A DNA stretch of 64,000 nt from Candidatus Thorarchaeota archaeon (GTDB lineage: Archaea > Asgardarchaeota > Thorarchaeia > Thorarchaeales > Thorarchaeaceae): NCBI GenBank assembly GCA_048882045.1, contig JBHLRZ010000009.1:32384-96383 (forward strand). The letters run 5' to 3'. The translations under genes were made by a program, and so were the position numbers. Below the pieces are notes generated by a model. The model was not told the DNA's origin, searched no databases, and saw nothing but the letters and a program-made list of their open reading frames with translations. Below, one piece after another: positions 1,650 to 36,386 of the stretch. Within the stretch, counting starts at the first letter, position 1. Each line of letters opens with the position of its first letter.

Positions 1650-1698
1650 CAATCACTCCTCAAGTACCCCCGAAGCCTGACCCTAAAGAACATTATCA

Positions 1699-3552: not shown

Positions 3553-4297
3553 TCTCAGTTAGCTCTCCATTTGCCATTGTAAAGTGACGGATACCTTTCC
3601 GTTTGATGATGCCTTCGTCATGAGTCATTACGATGACAGTCTTTCCCTGTTCATTCAACCTAGCAAGGAGGTCGCGTATCATTCGACCACTATCTCCATC
3701 GAGGTTTGCTGTGGGTTCATCAGCCAAGATAATTGGTGGGTCATTGGCCATCGCGCGAGCAATAGCAATGCGCTGTTGTTCACCTGAACTAAGCTGCCAG
3801 GGCAGATGATCTATTCTGTGTCCCATCTCTACTTCTTCAAGGAGTTTGATTGCATCCTCTCTCAGCTCCTTTTGGCTCTTGGAAGAGAGTTGCATAGGAA
3901 ACATTACGTTCTCGACCGCAGTCAACGTTGAAACTAGATTGTAACTCTGAAATATGAAGCCAGTATTGTCCAATCTGAAAGTAGATCGAAATGATTCATC
4001 ATAGTCATTGATGGGTACATCCATTACAAAGACCCGCCCGGAAGTGGCAAGATCAATGGCTCCAATGAGGTTCAGGAGGGTTGTCTTACCAGAGCCAGAC
4101 TTCCCTGAAACCACGATGTATTCTCCATGTTCGATGACAAGAGACACATCATTCAGAGCGGCAATCTCTTCTTTACCGATCTTGTAGACCCTGCACACTT
4201 TTTGAAGTCGGACAGCGTGTTTAGATTCCTTGAGGTCCTCAATATCGAGGGTATCCCTAGTATAGTCAACCGCATCAAAATAATCGTCATCCGCCAT
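3545..4297 (-). CDS. ABC transporter ATP-binding protein, LolD/MacB-like
   Basis: Walker A GKSGSGKTT, signature LSSGEQQR, ILADEPT, H-loop MTHD. Confidence 0.93.
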   Translation of the reverse strand: MADDDYFDAVDYTRDTLDIEDLKESKHAVRLQKVCRVYKIGKEEIAALNDVSLVIEHGEYIVVSGKSGSGKTTLLNLIGAIDLATSGRVFVMDVPINDYDESFRSTFRLDNTGFIFQSYNLVSTLTAVENVMFPMQLSSKSQKELREDAIKLLEEVEMGHRIDHLPWQLSSGEQQRIAIARAMANDPPIILADEPTANLDGDSGRMIRDLLARLNEQGKTVIVMTHDEGIIKRKGIRHFTMANGELTENE

Positions 4298-4361
4298 TCA
4301 TGACCACCTTGGCTGACTGGCGGATGTTTCATTCGGCAAGATAAGGTTAGAGGTTGGACAA

Positions 4362-5171
4362 CTATTGTACCAAAATGCCTTGTACGTCAATAGCGGTTCG
4401 AGCCCAGTCAGTGAGAAGGACTGGTTTTTCACGACCAAAGACCTTCACAGTACGAAGGATGTCCGCTTTCAGAAGCCCGCTAACATAATAGGATACCAAG
4501 CTTTTATCTACTTCAAGTGTCCGACTAATCTCAGCTTGAGTTGTCTGACCGTTCTTTGCGCACTCTGACAGAATCTGACCAACGGTGGGATTTCTCGCGA
4601 TTGCCGTAAGTCGCATCACATTCTCATCAGTGGAGTAATCGTTAAGGAAGATGTGACGAACGTTTCCGTATCGTAGCGATACCACCAACCCCTCTTCCTC
4701 AAGGAACTTCAAATGGTATTGAAGTGCACCCATCGCACATCCAATGATTCTATGAAGTTCGCGTAAATGAATACCCGGATTCTCAGCTACCTCAACGATG
4801 ATTCTGTCACGTAGTTTCTGCAACCTGCGGTCGTCGCGCCGTTCTATCGACACTGTGCTTATTACTAGTGCCATAAAACCTGTCTCTATCGCGGTGAAAA
4901 TTGCATCGGACCAAGCTATATTGGTTCCACCGGAATTCCAAGAAGTCAGAATAACATCTAGTGAGATATTCACACTTGTTGCAGTTGAAATCAAGAAAGA
5001 GTAGATCTCAAGATCCTGTTGATTCTGTGAATTAGTGGTAGGAGAAAGATCAAGAGCTACAAACTCGGTTTCACCAATACCAGAACTGGCTAATGCTACA
5101 CCAATGATGCTCCAAGTAAGAAGCACCAGCGAAATTCCAATGAATATTCGTTTGGTGAACTGCCTGTTCAT
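4362..5171 (-). CDS. Membrane-anchored double winged-helix transcriptional regulator
   Basis: Hydrophobic N-terminus plus a second TM segment; ENPGIHLRELHR...ALQYHL and TTQAEISRTLEVDKSLVSYYV HTH motifs. Confidence 0.75.
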   Translation of the reverse strand: MNRQFTKRIFIGISLVLLTWSIIGVALASSGIGETEFVALDLSPTTNSQNQQDLEIYSFLISTATSVNISLDVILTSWNSGGTNIAWSDAIFTAIETGFMALVISTVSIERRDDRRLQKLRDRIIVEVAENPGIHLRELHRIIGCAMGALQYHLKFLEEEGLVVSLRYGNVRHIFLNDYSTDENVMRLTAIARNPTVGQILSECAKNGQTTQAEISRTLEVDKSLVSYYVSGLLKADILRTVKVFGREKPVLLTDWARTAIDVQGILVQ

Positions 5172-5240
5172 AAAATACCTATCACCATCATACCCTAAAA
5201 TGGTTTTGTAGTTAAGCAGTTGGAATGAGGTATAATTGTA

Positions 5241-5795
5241 CTATGAAGTACCACGTGCTGGATATGTCATAGTGATCTTGAATGAACAACAGCTGTCACC
5301 AGAGGACATACACGTATCCTCAATGACAATCAATTTCTCATACTCAATCCTATTGAAATCTGTAAGGTATTCCAAAACAGCTTCTACAAATCCTTTGAGA
5401 AAGAAACAAGAGGGCTCGTCGGCTTCATATCCAGAAGCATAAGGATTGTCGCCAATTTCGATAATTGCTTCCTCATCCAACCAGAGTTTGTAGAGTTTCG
5501 CGATTTTTACATCACCAAAAGGAACGATGAGAGTTTCTAGTGCCATTTTAATGAACTCTACAATACCCTTGAAATCTCCCGGGGGATTCTGTTTTCCAAC
5601 CTTGAAATACTCTCTCTGAGCTTCCAGACCAGCAAGACGACCAGCAGAATAATACAAGTCACGCAGTTGATCTGGGAACATCACTGCGATTCTGCTTCCA
5701 AGCTTATTCCAAGTCTTCGCAAAGAATGCAACCATCAAGTCACGTTCCTTCAGCCGACCTTTCCACCATGGAATCACGTTTTCGGAGTCTGACAT
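5241..5795 (-). CDS. V4R-domain protein
   Basis: YYSAGRLAG, PSCFFLKGFVEAV, EDTCMSSGDSCCSF (V4R Cys pattern). Confidence 0.8.
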   Translation of the reverse strand: MSDSENVIPWWKGRLKERDLMVAFFAKTWNKLGSRIAVMFPDQLRDLYYSAGRLAGLEAQREYFKVGKQNPPGDFKGIVEFIKMALETLIVPFGDVKIAKLYKLWLDEEAIIEIGDNPYASGYEADEPSCFFLKGFVEAVLEYLTDFNRIEYEKLIVIEDTCMSSGDSCCSFKITMTYPARGTS

Positions 5796-5863
5796 ATCAC
5801 TGGCCTCGTTATCACTAACGTTGGAAAATTAGAATTAAAGTGCTTTATGTGTGTGTGATACGC

Positions 5864-6346
5864 TTACACAAGACGAACGTTCCAAACACAAGAGTCGGAC
5901 CCTGTAGCCTTGCTCATTTCTTGGAAAACTTTGGCATTTACACCCTTGAACTCTAGTATTGATTCAAGCACACCACTGAAAATCTCACAGTAGCCAAACC
6001 CTCGCATTCCTTCAAGGTTGACCTCTTGACACCAGACACAGTTGTCATCTGAGATACGGACTGACCCACGTGCACTCTTCATGTCGACATCACGGGGTTT
6101 CTTGTCATATAGTACTTTGTAGACGGTTTCAAGGAGCTTTGCAACATCTTCACGAGTAGTGACGTTTTCTTTAGTCTTCTCTACAATCTCAGTATTGAGG
6201 TAGACTTGCTGACCAATTTCCCGCCCTATTTCGCGAAGCCGCTCATTTGCATCCTCAATGCTTTCAGTTTCAGCAAGAGTCTTTTCAACATAGTATGAAT
6301 ACAAACTGATTAGTAATGGGTTCTCAATCTTTGGCATAGCATTCAA
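5864..6346 (-). CDS. TRAPP Bet3-family / V4R-fold protein
   Basis: ANERLREIGREIGQQV helix; CVWC...YCEIFSGVLESIL...SCVW. Confidence 0.72.
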   Translation of the reverse strand: MNAMPKIENPLLISLYSYYVEKTLAETESIEDANERLREIGREIGQQVYLNTEIVEKTKENVTTREDVAKLLETVYKVLYDKKPRDVDMKSARGSVRISDDNCVWCQEVNLEGMRGFGYCEIFSGVLESILEFKGVNAKVFQEMSKATGSDSCVWNVRLV

Positions 6347-6360
6347 TCCTCTTTTCTGTA

Positions 6361-7383
6361 TTAGATTGTCTTACCTATCACCTTGAGACCGTGCTTTCGA
6401 TACTTAGCTACTATCTGAATAACCTTCGGAAGTGGAAGTTTCAAAGCTTCAGCAATCTGTTCTGTTGTTCGACTACCATCACACATATTGATTATACTCT
6501 GATCACCTGATGCAACCTTGGATATGTCACCCTCAAATCGTGGACATTTGACATAACGACCCATCGTACTAGGAGCGGCAGCTACGCTCTCATCACCCGC
6601 CTCAATCTGAGGTACATCGATGATACCCTTTGATGCGCCCCACTTGAGCAATTCGATAACCCGATTGTTTGGCTGAAACATCGAGTCTGCAATCTGTTCA
6701 ACACTATTGTTCCCATCAACAAGCATGAGAACGTCAAATCCAAAGTTACGGTACTGGGTCTTCATCTCTTTGTAGAGTGACGAGTCCAAAGAGAGTGCAT
6801 TAGCATATTCGGAGCCTCTTGTTGGAACTGTTCCAGGCTGTACATTGAAATCATCTGGTGACAGCTCTGGTTTAATTTCATCAGCAGGAGCTTCTACAAC
6901 AGGAGTTTCAACTACGGGAGTTGGAGTTTCTATTGGGGGTTCTAGTGGGATTTCAGGAGGAACTGTTTCAACAGATGCTGCCTGAATCGCAATACTTTCC
7001 AAAACCTGAAGATTTGATTCACTGGACTCCTCGAAATCCTCTGGTGGTGGTGGGAGCTCTATACCTTCAAGAAGACGTAGAACATTCTTGGTCTTGGCAA
7101 TTGCAAGACCAAGCTGTAGTTCTGGCACATAGAGTACAGTGAGAATCCAGTTATCATCGACAGGAGAGAGGACGACTAGTCCACGGTCTGTGTCAATGGT
7201 CATAAGGCGTAGATCGGATTTGTACAGGGCTATACTATCTTTGACCCTTGGAAATAGTTCGTCAGGAAAAGCAAAACTAACGAAAGGCCTTCCGACCTTT
7301 GTCATTAGTGAATAACCTAAAACTTGGTCATCAAATCTCAGTTTTGAAAGAGCTCGCTCCAAATCCTTGGACATCAATAACAC
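6361..7383 (-). CDS. Roadblock/LC7-like domain + Pro/Glu linker + two winged-helix repeats
   Basis: N-terminal VLGYSLMTKVGRP...LQLGLA; repeats LVDGNNSVEQIA and MCDGSRTTEQIA; clear paralog of 9204-10256. Confidence 0.65.
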   Translation of the reverse strand: MLLMSKDLERALSKLRFDDQVLGYSLMTKVGRPFVSFAFPDELFPRVKDSIALYKSDLRLMTIDTDRGLVVLSPVDDNWILTVLYVPELQLGLAIAKTKNVLRLLEGIELPPPPEDFEESSESNLQVLESIAIQAASVETVPPEIPLEPPIETPTPVVETPVVEAPADEIKPELSPDDFNVQPGTVPTRGSEYANALSLDSSLYKEMKTQYRNFGFDVLMLVDGNNSVEQIADSMFQPNNRVIELLKWGASKGIIDVPQIEAGDESVAAAPSTMGRYVKCPRFEGDISKVASGDQSIINMCDGSRTTEQIAEALKLPLPKVIQIVAKYRKHGLKVIGKTI

Positions 7384-7528
7384 CTCACGGACCTTGGTCT
7401 GACCTTAGCCTGCCTGTCAATTCCTCTTTTCGAAAGGCGTCGTAAAAGGATTGTGGTGATAATATAATTTTCTGAGTTACGTCGGTCAATAACGGTTAAG
7501 AGGGATAGAGTGCGTCAACAGGAACAGA

Positions 7529-8086
7529 ATGAAGAACTTACTGAGTAGCATCATGGCTGTTGTCGTAGGCTCTACACTAATAGTGTGGCTCACGAACCTT
7601 ACGCAACCAACATATCCTGAACCTTTCGACGTGATATGGATGCTTCTCATAGGAAGTAGTACACTTCAATCCACGTTGTCTTTCATCACAGATGTGAACA
7701 ACGTACTAGCGTTTCTTGCATCATGGATTGTGATCGGCGTAATCATTGGACCTTTCTCTAAGTTCGGTTGGAATACAGTTCGGTCAGTGTTATGGGTTGG
7801 ATTCATTCACGCTATTCTGTCGTTGGCATCACTTCTTCTGTTGAATCCTGCGTTCTGGGAAATGTCATCTAGAAACTTCGAACTCTTGTATCAGTTTGCC
7901 ACCTCAATGATTGTGGCGTTACTCGCACTACCTTCTGCCCTCCTTTCAGCTCTGTTGATTAAACGAATTCGAACACAGACAGATCCTCCTATCCCAGTGA
8001 AGATCGAAACTATATGTGAGTGCGGAGCTGTATTCAAATCTAGACCAATGCTCTGTTCAGAATGTGGGCGGAAACTGTCTGATTAG
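7529..8086 (+). CDS. Multi-pass membrane protein with C-terminal Zn ribbon
   Basis: 4-5 hydrophobic segments; CECG...CSECG. Confidence 0.7.
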   Translation: MKNLLSSIMAVVVGSTLIVWLTNLTQPTYPEPFDVIWMLLIGSSTLQSTLSFITDVNNVLAFLASWIVIGVIIGPFSKFGWNTVRSVLWVGFIHAILSLASLLLLNPAFWEMSSRNFELLYQFATSMIVALLALPSALLSALLIKRIRTQTDPPIPVKIETICECGAVFKSRPMLCSECGRKLSD

Positions 8087-8610
8087 CGATCTCGGGAGAT
8101 TCCGCCTCCAAGGAAGCCGCCAATCGCACATGCAATGGCAGGATAGATCGTTCCCTCTAGTGCAGCTTGCATTATATACATAGACCCAGGCTCAAAGATA
8201 GCCATGAGATTGAATGAGGGGGATATCATAAAGAACAACAACCAGGTAAGAAATGCACCTATGACAGCGCCGATGATGGCAGCCATAATCCCGGGAAGGA
8301 AGTCCTTTGAGGCTAGGCCAGCGAGAAGACCACCAGTGCCCCAAGCCAGCCACATGAGTCCACTGGCATACTCAGCACCATAACCAACAAGCGCTCCAAG
8401 GCTTGGAGTGCCAAGAAAACCTGGGGAGGGGTACAGAACTGTTCCGACAACTGCTAACCTTAGCTCGAGGTCATTGTTGATCAAAAAGTCATCAACAACA
8501 AGTGCGGATATCAGATCGTTGGGGACGAGAGCCCCAAATGTAAGTACTATGAATGTTATTGCGAAAGCTGTTATCAGCCCTATTAGCGTGCCTAGACCTT
8601 GACCCAACAT
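8083..8610 (-). CDS. Gly-rich multi-pass membrane protein
   Basis: About 4 TM segments; GGAGGA Shine-Dalgarno upstream of the TTG start. Confidence 0.7.
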   Translation of the reverse strand: MLGQGLGTLIGLITAFAITFIVLTFGALVPNDLISALVVDDFLINNDLELRLAVVGTVLYPSPGFLGTPSLGALVGYGAEYASGLMWLAWGTGGLLAGLASKDFLPGIMAAIIGAVIGAFLTWLLFFMISPSFNLMAIFEPGSMYIMQAALEGTIYPAIACAIGGFLGGGISRDR

Positions 8611-8683
8611 AGGTCCTCCATGAATGATGAATTACAATACAATTTTCTCTTTTTAGGGTTTTATACCTATGCCAGATGGTTTA

Positions 8684-9187
8684 CTACAGAAGAGTCAGGG
8701 TCCAAGTGCAGGCTTCATCGCCAAGTGCTTTACATGACTCCTGGTAACTTTCTGCTTGGAATCCTCGAAGCTTCATCACTGCATCGAATACTCCACTCAC
8801 GATGACACAGTATTGCAGTCCAGGCATGTCTGTGATTAGAACTCCTGCACATATTGGACAGTCTGCATCAGTGAACTTGATAGTTTTCCGGTCCTCGCTT
8901 ATCCATATATTAGTAAATTCCTGGCCAGAGTTCACTTTATACGCAAGCTGGAGTGTCTTAGCAAACTCGTGGAATGCCCCTGCATGCTGACTGATTCTGT
9001 CTGCATAATCCATGAGCAGAGTTTCTCCAACTCGAAAACCAATATCCTTCATCTTGAAATTGATCATGTTAACGGAGTCACTGGTGCTCATCAACAGGTT
9101 CATCAGTTCTCTGTAGCTGGCTTGGAATAGAACCTTACTTACTTTCGGGGTCATGGCAGTCCAAGCAATTTTCCCTTTGATTCCCAT
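8684..9187 (-). CDS. TRAPPC3/Bet3-like protein (start revised to ATG 9187)
   Basis: GGAGG Shine-Dalgarno before ATG 9187; LFQASYRELM...INFKMKDIGFRVGETLLMDY resembles the Bet3 N-terminal helices; CPIC, YC, SC...AC. Confidence 0.78.
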   Translation of the reverse strand: MGIKGKIAWTAMTPKVSKVLFQASYRELMNLLMSTSDSVNMINFKMKDIGFRVGETLLMDYADRISQHAGAFHEFAKTLQLAYKVNSGQEFTNIWISEDRKTIKFTDADCPICAGVLITDMPGLQYCVIVSGVFDAVMKLRGFQAESYQESCKALGDEACTWTLTLL

Positions 9188-9203
9188 TGTTATTCCTCCA
9201 AAC

Positions 9204-10256
9204 TCAGTATCTTGATTCTTTGTCAGTACGTATGATTTTGAGAGTTTTCCCTCGATAGGGAAGTATGGTTTGCAACGCTTCGAAATAGGGTATGCCAACC
9301 TCAGTCGCAATCTCCTGTAATGTACGTTTTCCATTACAGAGTTCGATAACAGCTCTATGCTGTTTCTTGACCTTGTCAATTTTGCCTTGAAACAGTGGCA
9401 ACTCGATTATCTCCTTCTGGGAAGGTTCCTGAACTTCAGGACATTCAACAGATACAATATCGCGTGAAACACACCAAGAAACAATCGCAATGATTTTATC
9501 TACAGGACGAGATAGATGTTCAGCAATCCTATAGACAGTCCTTTTCTCATCTACTAAAAGAAGGACGTCAATACCGACATTCGAAAATTCCTTCTTTATT
9601 CGAGTATTCAAGTTTGTGTCAAGAGACATTGTTTCGCTGTACCTTCCAGCTCTAAAGACAACACAGCCATGTTGGACAACAACTTCCTTTTCTTCGTCCT
9701 TAACTTCCTCAACTGGTTCAAGAGTAGGTTCTGGTTGCGGTTCTTCGACTGCTTCGGGTACTTCAACCATTGGGACAAGCTCCGACTCTTCAGCCGATGA
9801 TGCTTGATGCGTTTCTGCTGGGTTTTCAAATACGGCTTCCATTGAGATAGGTTCAGGAAAAGATGCTTCAACATCTTCTTCGAATCTTGGTGGGGGAGGA
9901 AGGTCTACTTGGACTAGCAAGTCAACGACTGCTTTGGTTCGTGATAATGCACCTCCAAGTTGGAAGTCGGGTTCAAAGAGCACAGCAAGGACCCATAATG
10001 GGTTCACTCTCGCGAGAATAACGATTCCTTTGTCAGTCATTATATTAACTAGTTTCAAATCAGAACCGTGTATCTTCAAGGTTCCTTTGATCTGAGGGAG
10101 AACTGCATCAGGCAAAGAAAATGACAAGAAAGGATGTCCGTCAGCAGTTATGAGGGCGTATCCATTTACTGACTCATCGAATTTCAATTTAGTCAGGACA
10201 CGCTCTAGCTGCAATTCATACACCTTATCAAACGATGCAAGTATTAGTAAAACCAC
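9204..10256 (-). CDS. Roadblock/LC7-like domain + Pro/Glu linker + two winged-helix repeats (true start may lie ~40 nt downstream)
   Basis: LERVLTKLKFDESVNGYALITADGHP; LVDEKRTVYRIA and LCNGKRTLQEIA; paralog of 6361-7383. Confidence 0.65.
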   Translation of the reverse strand: MVLLILASFDKVYELQLERVLTKLKFDESVNGYALITADGHPFLSFSLPDAVLPQIKGTLKIHGSDLKLVNIMTDKGIVILARVNPLWVLAVLFEPDFQLGGALSRTKAVVDLLVQVDLPPPPRFEEDVEASFPEPISMEAVFENPAETHQASSAEESELVPMVEVPEAVEEPQPEPTLEPVEEVKDEEKEVVVQHGCVVFRAGRYSETMSLDTNLNTRIKKEFSNVGIDVLLLVDEKRTVYRIAEHLSRPVDKIIAIVSWCVSRDIVSVECPEVQEPSQKEIIELPLFQGKIDKVKKQHRAVIELCNGKRTLQEIATEVGIPYFEALQTILPYRGKTLKIIRTDKESRY

Positions 10257-27980: not shown

Positions 27981-28382
27981 ATGAGTATTAAGAAGTCTGA
28001 AGCTAAAAGTCTGAAGCCAGGAAGCTACTTCCTGATTGAAGGAGAGCCATGTAGAGTGGTATCAATAGAGAAGTCAAAACCTGGAAAGCATGGTGCAGCA
28101 AAAGCAAACATCGTGGCAATTGGCTTCTTTGACAATCGTAAAAGAAACGTCATCATGCCAGCAGACCGAATGGTCGATGTTCCACTCATTGACAAGACCA
28201 GTGCTACAGTGATCGCTGACATGGGTGAAACCTACAGTTTGATGGACAGTGAGACCTTTGAAACCTACGAGGTTCCAAAACCAGCAGATGATGAAATCGC
28301 GTCGAAGATTGAATTGAATGTAGCAGTAGAAGTCTGGAACGTCATGGACCGAAAAGTGATTACTAGGGTCAAGACATCTTAG
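27981..28382 (+). CDS. eif5a: Translation factor aIF5A
   Basis: Hypusine motif SKPGKHGAAK. Confidence 0.96.
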   Translation: MSIKKSEAKSLKPGSYFLIEGEPCRVVSIEKSKPGKHGAAKANIVAIGFFDNRKRNVIMPADRMVDVPLIDKTSATVIADMGETYSLMDSETFETYEVPKPADDEIASKIELNVAVEVWNVMDRKVITRVKTS

Positions 28383-28466: not shown

Positions 28467-28880
28467 ATGTCTGTAGACCAGCTTGAGAAATGGTTGACAT
28501 CACTCGACCTACCTTTTGAACTTCTTCAAGATATTCACACCTTCAGGGTGATGTGGGAGGTTGAAGAAGCTACTTTCGAGATTAGAATTGCAATTCGTGC
28601 TGACAAGTGGATTCATGTTTCGGTTCTTCTACTGAAACCTGATGAAATACCGCATGAAAGTAGAGAGGAGCTATTTGAAATCCTACTTCGTGAGAACTGG
28701 ATGCTTGATGATGTAACCTATTCCATGGATGAGAAAGGCAATATTTACTCTGAGAATGACATACCAGAGCAGACTAATCTTGAGAATTTCAAAAGTGAGC
28801 TCGACGCAGCCATCTTTGGATTGGAACGTTTTGTAACAATCGTTTCCAGTAGACTTGGAATTAATCCTAAGGGAGTTTAG
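28467..28880 (+). CDS. YbjN-like protein
   Basis: ELFEILLRENW...YSMDEKG pattern. Confidence 0.6.
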   Translation: MSVDQLEKWLTSLDLPFELLQDIHTFRVMWEVEEATFEIRIAIRADKWIHVSVLLLKPDEIPHESREELFEILLRENWMLDDVTYSMDEKGNIYSENDIPEQTNLENFKSELDAAIFGLERFVTIVSSRLGINPKGV

Positions 28881-28974
28881 AGAACTCATTTGATTCAGAA
28901 GATCTTCCAATCCAGAACCAGAAATGTGTGATTCTACTTATTGTAGATAGTGAAGAGATGAACTCAGGTGGAAA

Positions 28975-28998
28975 ATTATGCGAAGAGAGAGATTTGAT
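28975..28998 (+). repeat. Degenerate copy of the tRNA-Leu 3'-end repeat (R6)
   Basis: attatgcgaagagagagatttgat; 18/24 identical to atggtgcggagggcgagatttgaa. Confidence 0.55.
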
Positions 28999-29023
28999 AT
29001 GGAAGTGAAACGTTCGTGACTAT

Positions 29024-29482
29024 TTGATGACAGATCATTTCTATTCGACCGCATGCAAAGAATGTGGTGGATACTGTTGCACATTGGGAGGTACTCTTGC
29101 GACACAGTTGGAAGTTGACCGAGTCATTGAAGCTGGATATCCGAATAAATTCGTTGAAATTACAGAGAACTGCTATATTACAGATTTTGGAAAAACCCTG
29201 ATTTGCCCGTATCTTAAAGAGTCCAAATGCGAAATCTATCCTGTGCGTCCATTGCTTTGTAGGAAGTATCCCATTTTCTCAACAGACGGGGAAGAGCATT
29301 ATTTGGTCCATTGTCCTCTAACTCAATACCTTTCAAAAGATGATATCGCTCAATGTATTGAAGCTGCCTTAGAGGTTCCTGAAGAACTATACACATGTAC
29401 ACAGAAATTTATGGCTCCTTTTGGTTCAGGAATTGACGAACGAATGCGTAAATTCAGGATGGAGCCTATCAATCTTGAATGA
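29024..29482 (+). CDS. YkgJ/CxxCxxCC family Zn/Fe-chelating protein
   Basis: CKECGGYCC...CPYL...CEIYPVRPLLCRKYP. Confidence 0.88.
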   Translation: MMTDHFYSTACKECGGYCCTLGGTLATQLEVDRVIEAGYPNKFVEITENCYITDFGKTLICPYLKESKCEIYPVRPLLCRKYPIFSTDGEEHYLVHCPLTQYLSKDDIAQCIEAALEVPEELYTCTQKFMAPFGSGIDERMRKFRMEPINLE

Positions 29483-29563
29483 AAAGAGTGAATGAAGATA
29501 TGATTCTCTTTTTCGGGAATTGAAGTAACAGATAGGTGCTACAACTAATAGAGTGGAGTCCTG

Positions 29564-30412
29564 TTAGTCATGTAGTTTCTCAATTTCTATTGGATATGAT
29601 CCCAGAACTTTGACAAAGAGTGACCTAGATTCCAATCCCTCTAATGCCTCTGCACAGATTGAATCATCAATATGGCCTACAAAGTCTAAGTAGAAATTAT
29701 ACTCCCAGAGATTTTCTTTCGTCGGTCTCGATTCGATCTTAGTCATGTTGATACCCCTCGTGGCGAATTCGCCCAAAGCGTTGTAAAGGGCTCCTGCAAC
29801 ATGTTTGGTCGAGAAGATTACTGAAGTCTTATCATTTCCAGTTGGAGGAGCTTTGTCTTTGGATAGAACAAAGAACCTCGTGTAGTTGTTCCTAGTGTCA
29901 GCAATATCCTGAGCCAGAATTTTCATGTCATATATCTCTGCAGCTCTTTCAGCCGCCACAGCAGCTGCATCTCCCAACTCTTTCTCTCTAATCATTTTCA
30001 CACTTCCTGCTGTGTCATAGGTAGAAATCATTTCGATGTCTAAACCTTCTAAGTAGCTTCTACATTGTCCTAAGGCTTGGGGATGGGAATAGACCACGTT
30101 GATGTCACTCAAGGCTGATTCTGGATTAGCTATGAGACAATGTTCTATTCTTAGCGCCAGTTCTCCTCCCACTCTCAAATCAGATTGAAGGAATAGATCG
30201 TATACTGGGTTGACACTCCCCTCGATTGAATTCTCAATAGGTACAACCCCAAACTTGGTTACATCATCTTCAACAGTTCTGAAGACTTCTGAAAAACTCT
30301 TGCAAGGTTTGGGTCTGGCTCTGGGACCAAAGATTTTGATAACTGCAGATTCACTGTAGGCGCCAACCTCTCCCTGAAAAGCAACTTCTACATCTTGATT
30401 CAAATCAAACAT
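29564..30412 (-). CDS. pheA: Prephenate dehydratase with ACT domain
   Basis: AFQGEVGAYSE, PIENSIEG, SHPQALGQC, NYTRF, KIESRP. Confidence 0.93.
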   Translation of the reverse strand: MFDLNQDVEVAFQGEVGAYSESAVIKIFGPRARPKPCKSFSEVFRTVEDDVTKFGVVPIENSIEGSVNPVYDLFLQSDLRVGGELALRIEHCLIANPESALSDINVVYSHPQALGQCRSYLEGLDIEMISTYDTAGSVKMIREKELGDAAAVAAERAAEIYDMKILAQDIADTRNNYTRFFVLSKDKAPPTGNDKTSVIFSTKHVAGALYNALGEFATRGINMTKIESRPTKENLWEYNFYLDFVGHIDDSICAEALEGLESRSLFVKVLGSYPIEIEKLHD

Positions 30413-30482
30413 TTTCGTTGTCTCAAATCACTTGTTTCACCTAGCTTTAATGCTCTATGCATTTCAGCGCAAGAAGACGACG

Positions 30483-30506
30483 ATGATGCTGAGGGTGAGG
30501 GTCCAG
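30483..30506 (+). repeat. Degenerate copy of the tRNA-Leu 3'-end repeat (R5)
   Basis: atgatgctgagggtgagggtccag; 14 of the first 17 bases match; abuts the stop codon at 30507. Confidence 0.55.
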
Positions 30507-30992
30507 TCATTCACTGGAGCCAAGTATTTTCCTTAAGGAACCAATGTCATTGATGAAGACTAGGGTCAAAATTGAACCAGCGAGAGGTGTAATCAGAACT
30601 GGCCTAACAATCCAATCTTCTAGTACTCCATATATTTGGAATGATAGCCAGACCCATGATAGAAGAATCACTATAGATACAGGAAAAACTACCTTAATCA
30701 AGGACTCTCTGACCATTAGGATGATTAGAAGTAGAACATAGATCATAATCAACCAAAGAAATGGTAGAGTTGATGCATCAGAAACACCTTCTGCAATCTG
30801 ATATCCGGCCTGAAACTGGGAGATACTAGAGTACGCACCAAAGAGATAGATGACAATTGGATCAGACCAACCTCCAGTTACAATTACAGGAGGTTCTGAA
30901 TCTGCGATTTGGTTCAATTCTGCAACTGGCATGAATAAAGAGACTAGAATGAATATACTGACTGCAATAATCCCTTTTACATCATCTCTCAT
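30507..30992 (-). CDS. Hypothetical membrane protein (cassette 5)
   Basis: About 4 TM segments; fills the interval R5-R4. Confidence 0.65.
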   Translation of the reverse strand: MRDDVKGIIAVSIFILVSLFMPVAELNQIADSEPPVIVTGGWSDPIVIYLFGAYSSISQFQAGYQIAEGVSDASTLPFLWLIMIYVLLLIILMVRESLIKVVFPVSIVILLSWVWLSFQIYGVLEDWIVRPVLITPLAGSILTLVFINDIGSLRKILGSSE

Positions 30993-31049
30993 CTCACACC
31001 ACTATAATCCGTAGTAAAATTAGATGGAGATATGTTTTTTGAAGAAAGC

Positions 31050-31074
31050 ATGGTGCTGAGGGCGAGATTTGAAC
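31050..31074 (+). repeat. tRNA-Leu 3'-end repeat (R4)
   Basis: atggtgctgagggcgagatttgaac; one mismatch to 35696-35720. Confidence 0.95.
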
Positions 31075-31086
31075 AGAAGTCAGGAC

Positions 31087-32088
31087 TTAGACAGATGATT
31101 TGACATTATCTATTGAGTTCCATAGAGTTTCAGGTGAAATAAGTTCAATGTTTCCACTGTGTATCATGTTCTGAAGTTTCTGCATCAGGAGAGAGTTCAC
31201 AGGTGTAGCTAAACCGTATATTTCTCCTAAACTCACAATTTCACCAGTCAAGAATTCTTCTTCACTTGAAGAACCACGGAGTAATGATTGGTATGTAGAG
31301 GAGATAAAGTCAAGGCTATCTCTTTCTTGCTTCATCCAGGGTTCAAATGAAGCATCATTACTAAGAACTGTCATCAACTGGTCAAGAACTCGATAGTTCG
31401 GTTCAATCCCGGATTTTTTGACCACATTTCGACCTTCATCCCAGGTAGCAACGAGAATTTGTCTCAAGTGTTTATTCTTCAAACTTTTTGGAAATCCAGA
31501 CCCTGTGAGGGCAAGAGGCAAATTCATGAGATTCAGAACTAATTTTGCCCAGAGATCACTCTCAATATTAGTGGAAATATCGGTCGGTATTCCGGAGGAC
31601 ATGTAGTCACAGAGTCTCTTTATCCGCTCTGTTTCCGTTCCATCCAATTCCCCAATTATGCAATTGCCCTTGCGAGTGTATTCTATCTCTCCTGGTTCTA
31701 GATAACTTGCAGTAAATCGAACGACACCAGGAATCACTCTCATTGTTCCAATAACCTCTGATATTAACGTGGGATTCCTGATTCCATTCTGTAATGAAAC
31801 AACTGGAGTTGACTTTCCAAGATGAGGCGAGAATTCTTCGACTGCTAGTGTTGTGTCTTGAGTCTTGACTGTGAGAAAAACAACATCAGCTCCATCAACA
31901 CAGGATGAATCTGTTGTCGCATTGATTCTAATTGTGAAGTCTTCAAGCCCTTTAACCTTTAGACCATGTTCTCGAATCATGTCAACATGGTTTTGCCGCG
32001 CAACAAGAACAACATCATGACCTGCTCTATGAAGAGTAGCACCCAGAATACTTCCTATGGCTCCAGCTCCATACACCACAGCTTTCAC
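31087..32088 (-). CDS. panE: Ketopantoate reductase family protein (cassette 4)
   Basis: VYGAGAIG, LTVKT, SLQNGI, WAKLVLN, SSTYQSL, EFLTGEIV. Confidence 0.82.
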   Translation of the reverse strand: MKAVVYGAGAIGSILGATLHRAGHDVVLVARQNHVDMIREHGLKVKGLEDFTIRINATTDSSCVDGADVVFLTVKTQDTTLAVEEFSPHLGKSTPVVSLQNGIRNPTLISEVIGTMRVIPGVVRFTASYLEPGEIEYTRKGNCIIGELDGTETERIKRLCDYMSSGIPTDISTNIESDLWAKLVLNLMNLPLALTGSGFPKSLKNKHLRQILVATWDEGRNVVKKSGIEPNYRVLDQLMTVLSNDASFEPWMKQERDSLDFISSTYQSLLRGSSSEEEFLTGEIVSLGEIYGLATPVNSLLMQKLQNMIHSGNIELISPETLWNSIDNVKSSV

Positions 32089-32179
32089 TATTCAACCTCC
32101 CACTTCATTAGAAGTATGCAAAGCGTGATTATACTTTGATAAAAATGAATCTCCGCATTGAAGACATGTAGAATAATCA

Positions 32180-32203
32180 ATGGTGCGGAGGGCGAGATTT
32201 GAA
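32180..32203 (+). repeat. tRNA-Leu 3'-end repeat (R3)
   Basis: Exact atggtgcggagggcgagatttgaa. Confidence 0.97.
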
Positions 32204-32211
32204 TTCAAATC

Positions 32212-34710
32212 CTAAGTATCTTCAAGCAGACCATCAAGTAGTTCTTGGATTTCTTGTTCCCTGTTCGTTAGTTCTTGTTGTATGATTTTCTCCTTTCTCT
32301 TTTTCAGCTTTCGATGAGAATATGTGAAAGATGGCACCAAGAGGGCAAGAATCGACACTGCTGTAATGGGTATTGGACTGTGAATAAACATCTCCATCAC
32401 TGGAACATTGGCGTCATTTGGATCAAAGCCATTTGCTAGTTCCCACGTATCACTAAATCCATCGCTATCTCCATCAGCTGAATTTGGATCTGTATTGTTC
32501 CGATACTCCTCAAGATTGGTTAGTCCATCATCATCGTAATCTTGCGCGGAGTCATCAACTAGCGGATTCGTTCCCCTTTCGACTTCCCAAGAATCAGGCA
32601 TGAGGTCCCCATCCGAATCAGAAGACCCTGGATTAGTACCGTGAATATACTCCTGAAGGTTAGTGAGGTCATCACCATCCAGATCATTCATGGAATCATC
32701 CTCCAGTGGATTTAGCCCGTAGAAGACCTCCCAAGCGTCTGGAATCGTGTCGGAATCACTGTCAGAAGAATGCGGTGACGTTCCGTAAAGATACTCATCA
32801 AGATTGGCGAGTGTGTCATCGTCCGGGTCTTCTGCAGCATCATTACGCAATGGATCCAAAAGATTAAGAAACTCCCAATCATCAGTCATTGAATCCAAAT
32901 CGGAATCAACCGCAATCGGACTTGTGCCAATACGATACTCCTCAAGATTAGTCAGATTGTCATCATCTGAATCAAAGGAGGAGTCATCGAAGTCATCATT
33001 CAAACCATAGTAGCGTTCCCAGCTATCAGTCATCCGGTCATTGTCAAGGTCTGACATATCCTCGAGATTTATTATGAACACGTCGCCAGATTCAACAGTT
33101 GACATATTGAAGAACGTTGTTGCTGGAAAATCAACACTCTTGGTGTGCCCTGCCGCCAGAATGGTCCCTGAGTTACTCGGTCGAACACAACAAATGTCAT
33201 CACTCATTGTTCCTCCAATGTAAGAGGACAAGCGAATCTCATTTACGATATAATCTAGAACGAACAAGAATCCATCAGAAGACTCACAGGTACTATCAAA
33301 TGGACAAGTTAGGGGAAAATCCAAGGAATTGGTAGAACCCCCTACACAGATATTATCAGAACTGTCGACAAAGAAGCTTTTTCCTTCTTCCTTGCCACTT
33401 CCGCCAAAGAACTCGGAATAAACTAGTTCGTAATGAAATTCGGGGGGATTAGCATCTTTCCGAATGACGAAGAACTTGGTTGATTTGGCATCCACATGAT
33501 TAAGGCCCGAAGTAGTGCGTGGAAAGTCTGGTGATTCTGTCCTACCAGTAAGGAAGATATTCATCTCCTGATCGACAAAAACATCCAAACCACTATCAGC
33601 GAGCTCTCCACCAAGATAATCAGAGTAGAAGAGCTCCTGACCATTCTCATGCAGTTGACACACAAAGCAGTCTGAAAGGCCATTGAGTTCTCCTTCAGGA
33701 GGCTCTCCTTCTTGCACTACACATGGAAAATCATCTGAAAAAGTGTATCCTGTCACCGTTGCACGACTGTTTCGAACAGACATGGAAACGATGCAATCGA
33801 TATTACTCCCACCAAGAAACGTCGAGTATTCGACTCCTGTAAGTGTTGAATCGAACTTGATGATGAATCCATCAGATACTCCACCATATGTCATATCATA
33901 ACCATCTTTTATGGGGAATATTGGGGATTCGGTCCACCCTGCAACATACACAGATCCTTCTTCATCAATATCAACTGATTCAGCCCAATCTGACCGATTA
34001 CCACCGAATTTGAAAGAAAACACCAGAAGACCTGTTGTGGAATCAATCCCTAGAACAAAGCAATCCCAACCTTCTCTATCCCAATCTTCCCCTACTAGAA
34101 CAGAGTTCCCTGGTCCACCCAAAGATGGGAAGTACCATGACTTTGTTATACCTGTGATAATGATAATCCCAGTAAGATCGATGGCGACGGATACGGCAAT
34201 ATCCTCTTCCTCGCCACCAATGTAGGTTGAGTATAGAAGATCGTTTCCGTCTGAATTGAAAATAGCTATGAAGCAATCTGTATCCCCTCCAGCATGTTCA
34301 TACTGAATTGGATTTTGAAGAGGAAGATTGCGGGAATTTGTAGAACCAACGATAACAATACGTCCGTCTGAAAGCAGGACCATGTCTGCAATCCGCTCCC
34401 AGCTAGAGCCTCCGTAGATTGTTGATGATTGAATTGGATTGAAAAGATCAATCTCCTCCAGCGATTCGCCTGATGGTTTCATATTTCCGTGAAAAGATCT
34501 TTGCAGTGGGATTGTTGAGTTGTCTGCAGGAATGGTAGTGATTGAATCAATTTCCAAAGGGAGGAAGGGAGAGAGAAATAGCATCATGAATACTATGCAG
34601 AACACCACCACAGAAAGCCCCCATCTGCGTCTCAATATGACTACTATCCTTCTACAGACACCTTTCCGCATATATGTTGGGTCTACGATATCAATAACTT
34701 TGCGGTGCAC
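32212..34710 (-). CDS. Surface protein with SBBP-type beta-propeller repeats, acidic TSP3-like Ca-binding repeats and a TM anchor (cassette 3)
   Basis: YSTYIGG/YSTFLGG...G.T.S.DFP repeats; D.D.D.LTNL.EY and DSD.D.M.D.WE repeats; hydrophobic segments near both termini. Confidence 0.85.
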   Translation of the reverse strand: MHRKVIDIVDPTYMRKGVCRRIVVILRRRWGLSVVVFCIVFMMLFLSPFLPLEIDSITTIPADNSTIPLQRSFHGNMKPSGESLEEIDLFNPIQSSTIYGGSSWERIADMVLLSDGRIVIVGSTNSRNLPLQNPIQYEHAGGDTDCFIAIFNSDGNDLLYSTYIGGEEEDIAVSVAIDLTGIIIITGITKSWYFPSLGGPGNSVLVGEDWDREGWDCFVLGIDSTTGLLVFSFKFGGNRSDWAESVDIDEEGSVYVAGWTESPIFPIKDGYDMTYGGVSDGFIIKFDSTLTGVEYSTFLGGSNIDCIVSMSVRNSRATVTGYTFSDDFPCVVQEGEPPEGELNGLSDCFVCQLHENGQELFYSDYLGGELADSGLDVFVDQEMNIFLTGRTESPDFPRTTSGLNHVDAKSTKFFVIRKDANPPEFHYELVYSEFFGGSGKEEGKSFFVDSSDNICVGGSTNSLDFPLTCPFDSTCESSDGFLFVLDYIVNEIRLSSYIGGTMSDDICCVRPSNSGTILAAGHTKSVDFPATTFFNMSTVESGDVFIINLEDMSDLDNDRMTDSWERYYGLNDDFDDSSFDSDDDNLTNLEEYRIGTSPIAVDSDLDSMTDDWEFLNLLDPLRNDAAEDPDDDTLANLDEYLYGTSPHSSDSDSDTIPDAWEVFYGLNPLEDDSMNDLDGDDLTNLQEYIHGTNPGSSDSDGDLMPDSWEVERGTNPLVDDSAQDYDDDGLTNLEEYRNNTDPNSADGDSDGFSDTWELANGFDPNDANVPVMEMFIHSPIPITAVSILALLVPSFTYSHRKLKKRKEKIIQQELTNREQEIQELLDGLLEDT

Positions 34711-34749
34711 GTAAGCAAAATAAGCAGAATCATTGTTTTAGATATGAAA

Positions 34750-34773
34750 ATGGTGCGGAGGGCGAGATTTGAA
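34750..34773 (+). repeat. tRNA-Leu 3'-end repeat (R2)
   Basis: Exact atggtgcggagggcgagatttgaa. Confidence 0.97.
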
Positions 34774-34843
34774 TCAACGATAGAGGAAATGGTGAAGTTT
34801 TCAGGAGTATTCTATTTGAGTGTATTTGGGGGTAGAATAAAGA

Positions 34844-35218
34844 ATGTCCATACAATCAAAATTGGAGGCTCTCTCCTACATCTGTTTTGCAGGTATGATA
34901 ATTGGTTTTATAATGACTGTGGGCTATTCCCTGTTTATATGGTATCTATTCACAATGGCAATGCTTGCAGTATTTTCCATAGTTTTGATAGTCACTATAT
35001 ATTTTGGACTTAGAGATCATTCATTAGAAACACGAAAGATGCCTTGGTGGAGTAACATTGGAGTATTCATAATGGGTCTTGGAATATTCCTCTATACATT
35101 CCCCGAAATTGGAATCATATCTACTCTTACAGGCGTGATTGTTGTTTTATATGGAATATTCTACAAGGAAAACAGAAATTATGAGAAGATTAACTATGGT
35201 GCGGAGGGCGAGATTTGA
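34844..35218 (+). CDS. Small 4-TM membrane protein (cassette 2); ends inside repeat R1
   Basis: Hydrophobic; C-terminal GAEGEI and the TGA stop are encoded by the repeat. Confidence 0.7.
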   Translation: MSIQSKLEALSYICFAGMIIGFIMTVGYSLFIWYLFTMAMLAVFSIVLIVTIYFGLRDHSLETRKMPWWSNIGVFIMGLGIFLYTFPEIGIISTLTGVIVVLYGIFYKENRNYEKINYGAEGEI

Positions 35219-35219
35219 A
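35196..35219 (+). repeat. tRNA-Leu 3'-end repeat (R1)
   Basis: Exact atggtgcggagggcgagatttgaa. Confidence 0.97.
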
Positions 35220-35292
35220 AATAGCAGTAATCATTGAATAACAGTGCTTATCTGGGTCTTGAAGAAATGGAGTAAATAGTGGAGGGTGCTGA

Positions 35293-35718
35293 TTGAAAGG
35301 TAACAATCAGGAGTCCAACAAGGAACTTTCGACAGAATTAGTAGCTCTCTTTGAATTGTATATAAGCATATTACTACTTCTCATGGTATCAGCAATCAAT
35401 ATCAGAACTAGCGAGCTAAGGGATCTAACTATTCTTGTATCTGGCTTGTTTTTTGTTTTCTTGATATATTTTGGATACAAAGTAATACTAAGTGAAACTC
35501 CTGTATGGTCAGTGAATGCAAAGAGATTGTATGGGATTGGTTCTACTCTATTTCTTATAGGTGGTTCAATTGGTTTTAGCTCGACAAATTTCGAAGTAGG
35601 AGTTCTCATGATACTTGTGGGATTGATCTTGATTCTAATTGCCACTCTTCATCCAGATGCCCGAATCAGGAAGACTAGAACTATCAGAGAAGAAGATGGT
35701 GCGGAGGGCGAGATTTGA
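35293..35718 (+). CDS. Small 4-TM membrane protein (cassette 1); ends antisense within the tRNA 3' end
   Basis: GGAGG upstream; hydrophobic; ends GAEGEI-stop. Confidence 0.7.
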   Translation: MKGNNQESNKELSTELVALFELYISILLLLMVSAINIRTSELRDLTILVSGLFFVFLIYFGYKVILSETPVWSVNAKRLYGIGSTLFLIGGSIGFSSTNFEVGVLMILVGLILILIATLHPDARIRKTRTIREEDGAEGEI

Positions 35719-35814
35719 ACTCGCGAACTCCTACGAGATTCCCCCTTCATGATGAACTATCACGAAGACAGGGATCTGAACCCTGCGCCTTTAACCTGGC
35801 TTGGCAACCTCCGC
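35697..35814 (-). tRNA. tRNA-Leu(CAG), CCA encoded, with a ~30-nt non-canonical intron (about 35739-35768)
   Basis: Acceptor stem GCGGAGG/CCTCCGC-A-CCA; anticodon arm CAGGG-TTCAGAT-CCCTG; variable arm CTC-GTAG-GAG; T arm GCGAG-TTCAAAT-CTCGC. Confidence 0.93.
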
Positions 35815-35864: not shown

Positions 35865-36386
35865 TCAGTTCAATGATTTCATAACATCTAGAAGGCTATT
35901 CATTTCAGGACAAGCACCGTGATCTCCAGAGAGGACCTCTATATGACGGATGACACCCATCTTGTCAATCACAAACACAGCACGTTTACCATATCCCTCC
36001 TTAGGCACAAAACAGTCATACTTCAGTGTGACTCCACCTAGTGGATATTGGTCGGACAACAATGGAAATCCTAGCGTGTCAATACTGTCAGTCCATTCTT
36101 TGTTTACCTCAACCGAGTCCATGTTGATTCCCAATACTTGAGTGTCGTGAGCATTGAAATCTGTCAGATGTTCCTTATAGAACAAAAGATAGTCCTTGCA
36201 GGATTCGTTCAATCGTCCAGGATTGAGTGCGAGGGCAACATTGTATCTATCATGGAAGTCTGATAGCTTGACGGCATTCCCATCCTGGTCCGGAAGAAGG
36301 AAATCAAGAGCTTCTTCTCCAGGGCTCAAACATACATACTGTTCACGAAGAATCATAATGATGCACAGGTTCTCTTCCGAAACCAC
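35865..36386 (-). CDS. Peroxiredoxin-like (AhpC/TSA) protein; start probably near 36329
   Basis: DFLLPDQDG, PGRLNESC, FPLLSD, KRAVFVIDKMG. Confidence 0.8.
   Translation of the reverse strand: MVSEENLCIIMILREQYVCLSPGEEALDFLLPDQDGNAVKLSDFHDRYNVALALNPGRLNESCKDYLLFYKEHLTDFNAHDTQVLGINMDSVEVNKEWTDSIDTLGFPLLSDQYPLGGVTLKYDCFVPKEGYGKRAVFVIDKMGVIRHIEVLSGDHGACPEMNSLLDVMKSLN

Follow-up and report, generated by a model that had tools for sequence, protein, structure and literature searches.

The 64,000-nucleotide stretch of DNA analysed here, which is referred to below as the window, comes from a Candidatus Thorarchaeota archaeon (GenBank assembly GCA_048882045.1, contig JBHLRZ010000009.1, positions 32,384 to 96,383) and contains, behind a gene for tRNA-Leu(CAG), an array of genes separated by copies of the 3' end of that tRNA. 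Comparison with related genomes shows that this array is real and that it is a polar stack, made up of at least seven one-gene cassettes that were acquired independently. The same comparative evidence shows the insertion point to lie at about position 54/55 of tRNA-Leu(CAG), at the 5' edge of the T-loop, and shows an incoming unit to bring its own copy of positions 54-76, which completes the tRNA, so that the prior 3' end is displaced downstream as an orphan “core”. The host genome is a metagenome-assembled genome (MAG) of 3.6 Mb in 93 contigs that is 93% complete, and the array was queried by BLASTN in a genus comparison of 28 genomes, which are incomplete MAGs.

The repeat that separates the units is a 24-mer, ATGGTGCGGAGGGCGAGATTTGAA, which is the reverse complement of positions 54-76 of tRNA-Leu(CAG), from the T-loop through the CCA, plus one base. 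A sequence search locates it exactly at 35696, 35196, 34750 and 32180 and with one mismatch at 31050, with every copy on the same strand, and the number of matches to be expected by chance is indicated by the 100 dinucleotide-preserving shuffles, in which there were 0. When two degenerate copies are included, the core-to-core spacings are 500, 446, 2570, 1130, 567 and 1508 bp. These positions and spacings had been reported in an initial annotation, made from the letters of the sequence without database searches, and all of them were confirmed. The anchor and the cores are as follows.

35700..35814, minus strand: tRNA-Leu(CAG), 115-118 nt, Rfam RF00005 at 48.5 bits; anchor of the array
35696..35719, minus strand: core copy 0, within the functional tRNA; tRNA positions 54-76 plus 1 nt
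35196..35219, minus strand: orphan core 1, exact
34750..34773, minus strand: orphan core 2, exact
32180..32203, minus strand: orphan core 3, exact
31050..31073, minus strand: orphan core 4, one mismatch
30483..30506, minus strand: decayed core 5, 15/23; in the same place as the perfect core before the prephenate dehydratase (PheA) gene in the relative G004 (G004:C187)
28975..28998, minus strand: decayed core 7, 17/23; starts ATCAAATC, as does the distal core of the CxxCxxCC-domain (CxxC) cassette in 11 other genomes

The tRNA itself is called by ARAGORN as a tRNA-Leu(CAG) of 118 nt only when introns are allowed; it has an extra insert of about 30 nt in the variable-arm region, its T-arm is contiguous and its CCA is encoded. 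The core repeat corresponds to the 3' strand of the T-arm and acceptor, and it has no complementary partner nearby (T-stem pairing is 1-3 of 5). No terminal inverted repeats or palindromes were found at the unit ends, and the duplication, at 23-24 nt, exceeds the target-site duplications of casposons.

If the degenerate copies at 28975 and 30483 are considered alone, they are at about the level of chance, since 0.4 matches with at most 8 mismatches are expected per 11 kb. They are nevertheless accepted as true cores on comparative sequence evidence, because relatives bear good cores at precisely these places of their CxxC and PheA cassettes, and the earlier proposal to count them is thus borne out by their position. 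The layout proposed with them stands in part: the five proximal units each hold one gene, as described, but the 1508-bp distal unit is not a single unit and is made up of two cassettes (PheA and CxxC), the core between which (about 29483-29563) is decayed. The genes of the cassettes and of their surroundings are listed below, with transmembrane abbreviated as TM.

35293..35718, plus strand: cassette 1 gene, 141-aa multi-TM protein (TM141 family); antisense to the tRNA, with its last 7 codons and stop within the tRNA core
34844..35218, plus strand: cassette 2 gene, 124-aa TM protein (TM124); ends in the core (..GAEGEI*); no DNA match in the genus
32212..34710, minus strand: cassette 3 gene, 832-aa surface protein with SBBP beta-propeller, TSP3 repeats and C-terminal TM anchor
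31087..32088, minus strand: cassette 4 gene, ketopantoate-reductase-like (ApbA/PanE) oxidoreductase; no DNA match in the genus
30507..30992, minus strand: cassette 5 gene, 161-aa TM protein (TM161 family)
29564..30412, minus strand: cassette 6 gene, prephenate dehydratase (PheA; PDT and ACT)
29024..29482, plus strand: cassette 7 gene, CxxCxxCC zinc/iron-chelating-domain protein (CxxC)
28467..28880, plus strand: YbjN-like gene
35865..36386, minus strand: AhpC/TSA peroxiredoxin, the conserved upstream flank, followed by CbiO and CbiMQ
27981..28382, plus strand: aIF5A, the conserved downstream flank, followed by NAD kinase, PIN and UPF0047

The evidence that the array was built by insertion comes from its conserved surroundings. 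Eight relatives share the frame CbiMQ-CbiO-(AhpC)-tRNA-Leu ... aIF5A-NADK-PIN-UPF0047, and they have 0-2 units between the tRNA and aIF5A, as against the approximately 6.8 kb (28.9-35.7 kb) that are found here. Since the relatives have so few units within a conserved frame, the 6.8 kb is, on this comparison, a lineage-specific insertion series. The YbjN gene is directly behind tRNA-Leu(CAG), at a distance of 12 bp, in the closest relative, G004; it is behind another tRNA-Leu (anticodon TAG) in G002 and G005, and it is missing from the present locus in G006, G018 and G005. It is probably an eighth cassette, and the oldest.

The evidence that the units were acquired independently comes from the cassettes themselves, which are common to genomes one by one, with DNA homology that stops at the cores. 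Single cassettes (CxxC, PheA, TM161, TM141 and YbjN) recur in at least 13 genomes of the genus at 73-89% DNA identity, with the same bounding cores but in differing orders, in differing slots and at differing tRNA-Leu loci. The most widespread of them in the genus is the CxxC cassette (window 28970-29486), which is present in at least 13 genomes at 76-85% identity and whose length from core to core is always 510-516 bp. The counterpart of the PheA cassette in G004, which is 89% identical in DNA and core-bounded, is on another contig, the TM161 cassette adjoins CxxC in G010, and the TM141 cassette is 82% identical, exactly core to core, to G002:C20:44196-44695, with members of its family in G002 and G018 likewise ending in cores. 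No counterpart in the 28 genomes was found by BLASTN for the TM124, surface-protein and PanE-like cassettes; the repeat region of the surface-protein gene gives just short weak matches (68-72% over about 100-250 bp) in its own genome and in relatives.

The mapping of 20 arrays reveals true permutations of order, beyond what insertions and deletions produce. The order is GNAT-CxxC in some genomes and CxxC-GNAT in others, a cupin cassette precedes or follows CxxC depending on the genome, and the TM161-PheA-CxxC of the window differs from the CxxC..TM161..PheA of G002 and from the CxxC-PheA of G035. Identical gene content and order across relatives, which the initial annotation had named as an observation that would speak against a cassette array, is thus not what is found, for both content and order differ. 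A further detail locates the exchange point: the distal core of the CxxC cassette begins with A, and not with T54, in 12 genomes, whatever comes next, and therefore this base travels with the cassette and the exchange point is 3' of position 54.

The direction of growth can be read from the state of the cores. The core mismatches in slots 1-5 are 0.93, 1.58, 2.55, 3.2 and 4.0 (rho 0.51, for 44 cores in 15 arrays from related genomes, which are not independent), and because cores decay with distance from the tRNA, these values support polar growth at the tRNA end of the stack. Serial entry at the tRNA places the newest units, with perfect cores, next to the tRNA and the old ones, with decaying cores, farthest from it. 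The earlier suggestion that the units are stacked one after another at the tRNA is in this way upheld, as a polar insertion series. In the 15 arrays the median unit size is 622 bp and the range is 278-2808 bp. The cargo is ordinary and diverse, including GNAT, cupin, an SSB-like OB fold, DUF2284, oxidoreductases, thioesterase, hydrolases, TPR, LRR, AbiV and an OLD-type nuclease.

These observations bear on two explanations in which the array would not be what it seems. According to the first, the contig, which comes from a MAG, would be an assembly artefact in which strains were chimerically joined at the 24-bp repeats. This is scarcely credible, since the repeats are below the usual assembly k-mers, more than 18 genomes yielded arrays with these cassettes and cores in separate assemblies, and the flanks are syntenic. 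According to the second, the units would be eroded remnants of larger integrase-bearing elements, such as additive tRNA islands or tycheposon remnants, and would not be mobile in themselves. Tandem accretion with partial tRNAs and degenerate elements does occur in Prochlorococcus islands (10.1101/2020.12.28.424599), and the distal cores are decayed here also, but erosion is very unlikely to have generated the same small unit with the same boundaries in at least 11 genomes with other neighbours and another order (CxxC at 510-516 bp), or four perfect cores that bound intact single genes. The search for integrase remnants, the second observation that had been named as adverse, found no integrase fragments in the window array, and no open reading frame (ORF) in the array is split at the repeats, as an SSV-type partition would require; the TM141 and TM124 genes both stop inside the repeat (..GAEGEI*).

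Arrays of the same kind are present at other tRNAs, for which the initial annotation had proposed a scan. In the host genome, orphan copies of positions 54-76 are found behind Leu(TAG), Ala-type, Phe, Ser-type, Thr and other tRNAs, and all of them start at the T-loop and end at the CCA. Closely spaced arrays of tRNA-Leu cores are found in 18/18 genus genomes searched and in one genome of the same order. At unrelated tRNAs and cassettes alike, the duplicated segment has its left edge at nearly the same place (positions 54-55).

The question of what inserts the units is a separate one. The initial annotation had found no integrase in the window and had invoked a tyrosine-type recombinase acting in trans. 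The first of these statements applies to the assembled genome as well, in which the models PF00589 (tyrosine recombinases), PF16795 (SSV-type integrase) and PF00239 (serine recombinases) have no match at 93% completeness, so that the proposed search for a stand-alone tyrosine recombinase is also negative for this genome. For the second, the evidence points elsewhere: PF00589 matches are found in 9 of the 28 genus genomes and in none of the other 19, the host included, and the 15 PF00589 loci of the genus that were examined have no tRNA, core or tRNA fragment beside them. About 150 array ORFs include no recombinase. We infer that the agent acts in trans and is not a canonical integrase. As a side observation, a XerA-type chromosome-dimer resolvase is also undetected in the 19 genomes without PF00589 matches, which is unusual for archaea, the MAGs being incomplete.

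A recombinase could nevertheless be involved if the cassettes are excised as circles, as the initial annotation had supposed, each with one core, and if a trans-acting tyrosine, serine or unrecognised enzyme, perhaps encoded on an unbinned virus or plasmid, then inserts them at the T-loop, in the manner of integron cassettes or of satellite islands that have no integrase. Such an enzyme would account for the sharp sublocation, from the edge of the T-loop through the CCA, that is found in all arrays, and chemistry of the attI x attC type yields just such a polar age gradient and such shuffled single units. Tyrosine integrases that target tRNAs classically cross over in the stem-loop with its 7-nt loop (Williams 2002, cited in PMC8813620), and mobile elements are often absent from MAGs, of which the host genome, at 93% completeness, is one. 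We nevertheless consider this explanation doubtful. The genome-wide, genus-wide and array-wide searches just described give it no candidate enzyme near a tRNA, the cores of many tRNAs would demand many specificities, and the attP-side arms have no conserved inverted core site.

The explanation that we prefer, which in our estimation falls a little short of an even chance, is that a tandem-HNH endonuclease cuts the tRNA gene and that the cut is followed by homology-directed copying from a donor. The candidate agent would be a Thorarchaeota-specific family of site-specific endonucleases with several helix-turn-helix (HTH) domains and two tandem HNH domains, whose genes are found at tRNA 3' ends. 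Such an enzyme would first cut the tRNA gene at the T-loop, and the break would then be repaired from donor DNA, which could be the array of another cell or an excised piece. The left homology for this repair would be supplied by the tRNA body and the right homology by the 23-nt core or by a common neighbouring cassette, and everything between the donor tRNA and one donor core would be copied in. Cassettes without a nuclease, like those of the window, would ride along by this homing or “trans-homing” route.

The family was recognised from a gene on another contig of the host (C49), which encodes a 923-aa multi-HTH protein and ends, in convergent orientation, 4 bp from a tRNA 3' end. This gene overlaps the gene of a 1029-aa protein with weak HerA/CedD-type ATPase matches. 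The C-terminal module of the 923-aa protein, of about 330 aa, is found in 16/28 genus genomes, often in multiple copies or as decayed fragments, and at 13 of the 20 genus loci that were fetched the module gene is convergent with a tRNA and has its stop 4-40 bp from, or inside, the tRNA 3' end. The tRNAs that are abutted in this way include several Val isoacceptors, Ala-type, Gln/Pro-type, Leu(CAG) in G034 and Leu(GAG) in G012, where the HNH ORF runs through the tRNA-Leu(GAG) core and reads ..DDGAEGEI. In the closest relative, the tRNA-Leu(GAG) is followed after 12 bp by a decayed remnant of the module. The family comprises 49 clusters among 5.8 billion proteins, and all named members are from Thorarchaeota and are annotated as hypothetical or HTH.

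The assignment to the HNH nucleases is based on conserved residues and on structural modelling. The module of about 330 aa has two HTH domains and two tandem CxxC..HRKDG.EH..LCxxCHxxxH motifs in which Cys and His are invariant. When the domain is modelled in isolation (pLDDT 92.9), its 13 best PDB matches are all HNH nucleases, among them Cas5-HNH, GVE2, Gme, McrA, Cap5 and T4 endonuclease VII, each of the matches being weak (E 0.2-1, TM-score 0.43-0.54), and weak Pfam HNH matches are found for 10/19 members. Fold searches with the whole 330-aa module are dominated by its HTH domains (Foldseek E >= 0.07), in a VIA-wide fold search with the whole module no match exceeds Z 6.5 and the T5 SciA HNH nickase scores Z 5.1, and a PDB sequence search gives HTH relatives alone for the whole module and a marginal match to the ZRANB3 HNH (E 0.23) for the isolated domain. 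A consistent set of HNH folds is thus obtained with the isolated domain only. The module is therefore predicted to be an HNH (beta-beta-alpha-metal) nuclease with conserved Cys4 and His. No match in the host genome was found for LAGLIDADG_1, LAGLIDADG_2 or LAGLIDADG_3 of Pfam.

Two loci of the family show features that are of interest in their own right. On C49 (L135), a segment of about 9 kb at 723-9787 lies between two near-identical tRNA copies; it opens with the 923-aa gene, which is translationally coupled to that of the 1029-aa HerA/CedD-like ATPase, and it also encodes a 633-aa unknown protein. The segment may represent an array-building element in autonomous form. At L145 (G012:C48), the tRNA-Leu(GAG) at 1872-1991 has the T-loop TTAAAAT in place of TTCAAAT, so that C56 is changed, and it could be a cleavage-resistant or dead allele.

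Several points weigh against the HNH explanation. The window array contains no HNH gene or remnant, and the only member of the family in the host is at a different tRNA; 12/28 genus genomes have no member, though all 18 that were searched have arrays of tRNA-Leu cores. The arrangement of the genes is not uniform, since at some loci the gene is upstream of the tRNA or co-directional with it, and none of three independent loci outside the sample is convergent at a tRNA 3' end (one is directly upstream of tRNA-Val, one is within 0.9 kb of tRNA-Leu(GAG), and one is near no tRNA). The tRNA-Leu(CAG) that is beside an HNH gene in G034 has no CbiO/AhpC flank, and so it does not place the nuclease at the locus of the window array. 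The fold matches are individually weak, and the cleavage of tRNA genes by the family is a prediction. A length of 23 nt is short for homology-directed repair. The HNH model also gives no account of how a new gene first acquires a core or, because the regenerated tRNA remains a target, of how carriers would be immune.

The last of the explanations to be weighed dispenses with a dedicated enzyme: ordinary homologous recombination between cores, by loop-out, Campbell-type re-insertion and unequal exchange with imported DNA, would move the units, and selection would keep those insertions that spare the tRNA. Every junction is within identical sequence and no dedicated enzyme for tRNA-Leu was found in the host genome, both of which are as this explanation would have it, but it is improbable on three counts: a left edge that is near-constant (54-55) at unrelated tRNAs is unlike random fragment capture, 23 nt are a poor substrate without an induced break, and polar growth is not expected if all cores are equivalent.

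If cutting of the T-loop by the HNH family is taken as the means of entry, a wider reading can be put forward tentatively, with less assurance than the HNH explanation itself. Thorarchaeota would have an integrase-free equivalent of integron gene capture, in which HNH cuts at the T-loop, followed by repair, give rise to shufflable polar arrays at many tRNAs; this would be a main route by which the lineage group of archaea that is closest to eukaryotes acquires foreign genes, and tRNA introns at 53/54 to 58/59 may be a counter-measure.

The system to which the array is most readily compared is the integron, including archaeal integrons and the integrase-less attC clusters known as CALINs (Ghaly et al. 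2022, PMC9668308). In both, most units have one gene, the cargo is unrelated from unit to unit, each unit ends in a repeat that resembles a recombination site, units are reordered across genomes, and one end is the privileged point of entry. The independent mobility of cassettes that is required of an integron is found here, with the same cassette in different arrays and orders. In contrast to integrons, however, there is no IntI or tyrosine recombinase (no PF00589 in the genome and none among the array ORFs), the place of a folded attC is taken by a tRNA 3' end copy that is not palindromic, that of an attI beside intI is taken by a functional tRNA gene as the anchor, and the array genes are in both orientations, apparently with their own upstream regions. 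By the structural definition, which asks for IntI, attC and attI (PMC9668308), the array lacks every component. The term “integron-like”, which the initial annotation had used, is therefore apt for the behaviour of the array, with its mobile and reordered cassettes, but not for membership of the integron family.

The array also resembles the tycheposons and islands of Prochlorococcus (10.1101/2020.12.28.424599) and the products of SSV/pNOB8-type integration, in that insertion is into a tRNA gene whose 3' part is duplicated, newer insertions push older ones outward, and the flexible island is interspersed with partial tRNAs. As is characteristic of such elements, the inserted DNA lies between direct repeats of the 3' part of the tRNA and the tRNA is restored, but an integrase of the element's own, or a remnant of one, is absent. 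The known elements measure several kb and encode an integrase, in many cases together with a replication module, whereas the units here have a median of 0.6 kb and one cargo gene, contain no integrase or fragment of one, and are themselves recurring mobile units. Nor is there a split int of the SSV type: PF16795 and PF00589 give no match, and the ORFs that enter the repeats are those of small TM proteins that stop in the core. The aloposons of Wu et al. 2022 and the Atabeyarchaeia elements were considered and set aside, being large elements with an integrase or giant genes, unlike the array.

Homing endonucleases provide a third comparison. In T4, the free-standing HNH enzyme MobE acts in trans on a neighbouring element that is itself defunct and makes it mobile (PMC2790892), and in a fungal mitogenome duplications of the C-termini of cob and atp6 are situated with degenerate endonuclease ORFs (PMC6279837). 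The likeness would consist of a gene for a site-specific nuclease where a conserved gene ends, a new 3' end that replaces the old one and displaces it downstream, a patchy and decaying distribution of the nuclease, and the capacity of neighbouring DNA without a nuclease to be mobilised in trans. A gene of the predicted homing type at the 3' end of its putative target is found at the 13 of 20 genus loci and at the other host tRNA, and not in the window array. The differences are that the target is here a chromosomal tRNA gene of an archaeon and the result a long array of cargo without nucleases, and that the predicted nuclease has two HNH and several HTH domains and sometimes a HerA-like ATPase. 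A literature search found no paper that describes such arrays in Asgard archaea.

The significance of the arrays derives from the fact that Asgard archaea have large accessory genomes, enriched in bacterial genes, for which the route of uptake is largely unknown. The present locus and its sister loci provide a concrete, genus-wide route, in which single genes enter tRNA 3' ends as reusable and reorderable units. If the HNH family is the agent, then the integron principle would have been invented a second time, by an independent mechanism, and homing endonucleases would have a new role, in driving the capture of cargo rather than in purely selfish spread. The system is directly testable, since the target (23 nt of a tRNA gene) and the candidate enzyme are both defined, and it may bear on the occurrence of archaeal tRNA introns at odd positions.

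The host genome has many intron-bearing tRNAs, and some of the inserts coincide with the point of cassette entry. In the tRNA-Leu(GAG) at C19:37201-37318 (L139), an insert of 30 nt separates position 53 from position 54, and several tRNA-Leu genes of the genus have inserts that end at 53/54 or in the T-loop (L104, L107, L110, L097, L099, L100 and L108). Behind the C19 tRNA-Leu(GAG) there are homologues of the genus cassettes cupin, GNAT, TauE, PrcB and GFO, with no recognisable cores. The possibility that arrays are “frozen” by an intron at 53/54 was considered, and no clear relation was found, since an intron-bearing tRNA-Leu of G014 heads four near-perfect cores. The notion that an insert at 53/54 gives protection from insertion is thus suggestive, with an inconsistent pattern (C19 as against G014).

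A small multi-TM family, with members that are 29-77% identical, recurs in the first slots behind tRNA-Leu (TM141 and TM124 of the window, L100 at 5503-7138, and L107). Its genes are always antisense, and their last codons and stop are within the tRNA core; since the ends of these genes are always within the core, the family and the core have long co-evolved. A specific kinship between TM141 and TM124 was not established (BLASTP E 0.17).

The PheA product has two matches from Thorarchaeota (72-74%), followed by matches from Bathyarchaeia and Dehalococcoidia (60-72% identity), which suggests that the cassette pool exchanges genes across phyla and domains. Cargo of defence type is found in the tRNA-Leu array of another relative (L117, G015:C124), where core-bounded units of 1.2-3.1 kb encode an OLD-family ATPase-TOPRIM nuclease and an AbiV HEPN protein.

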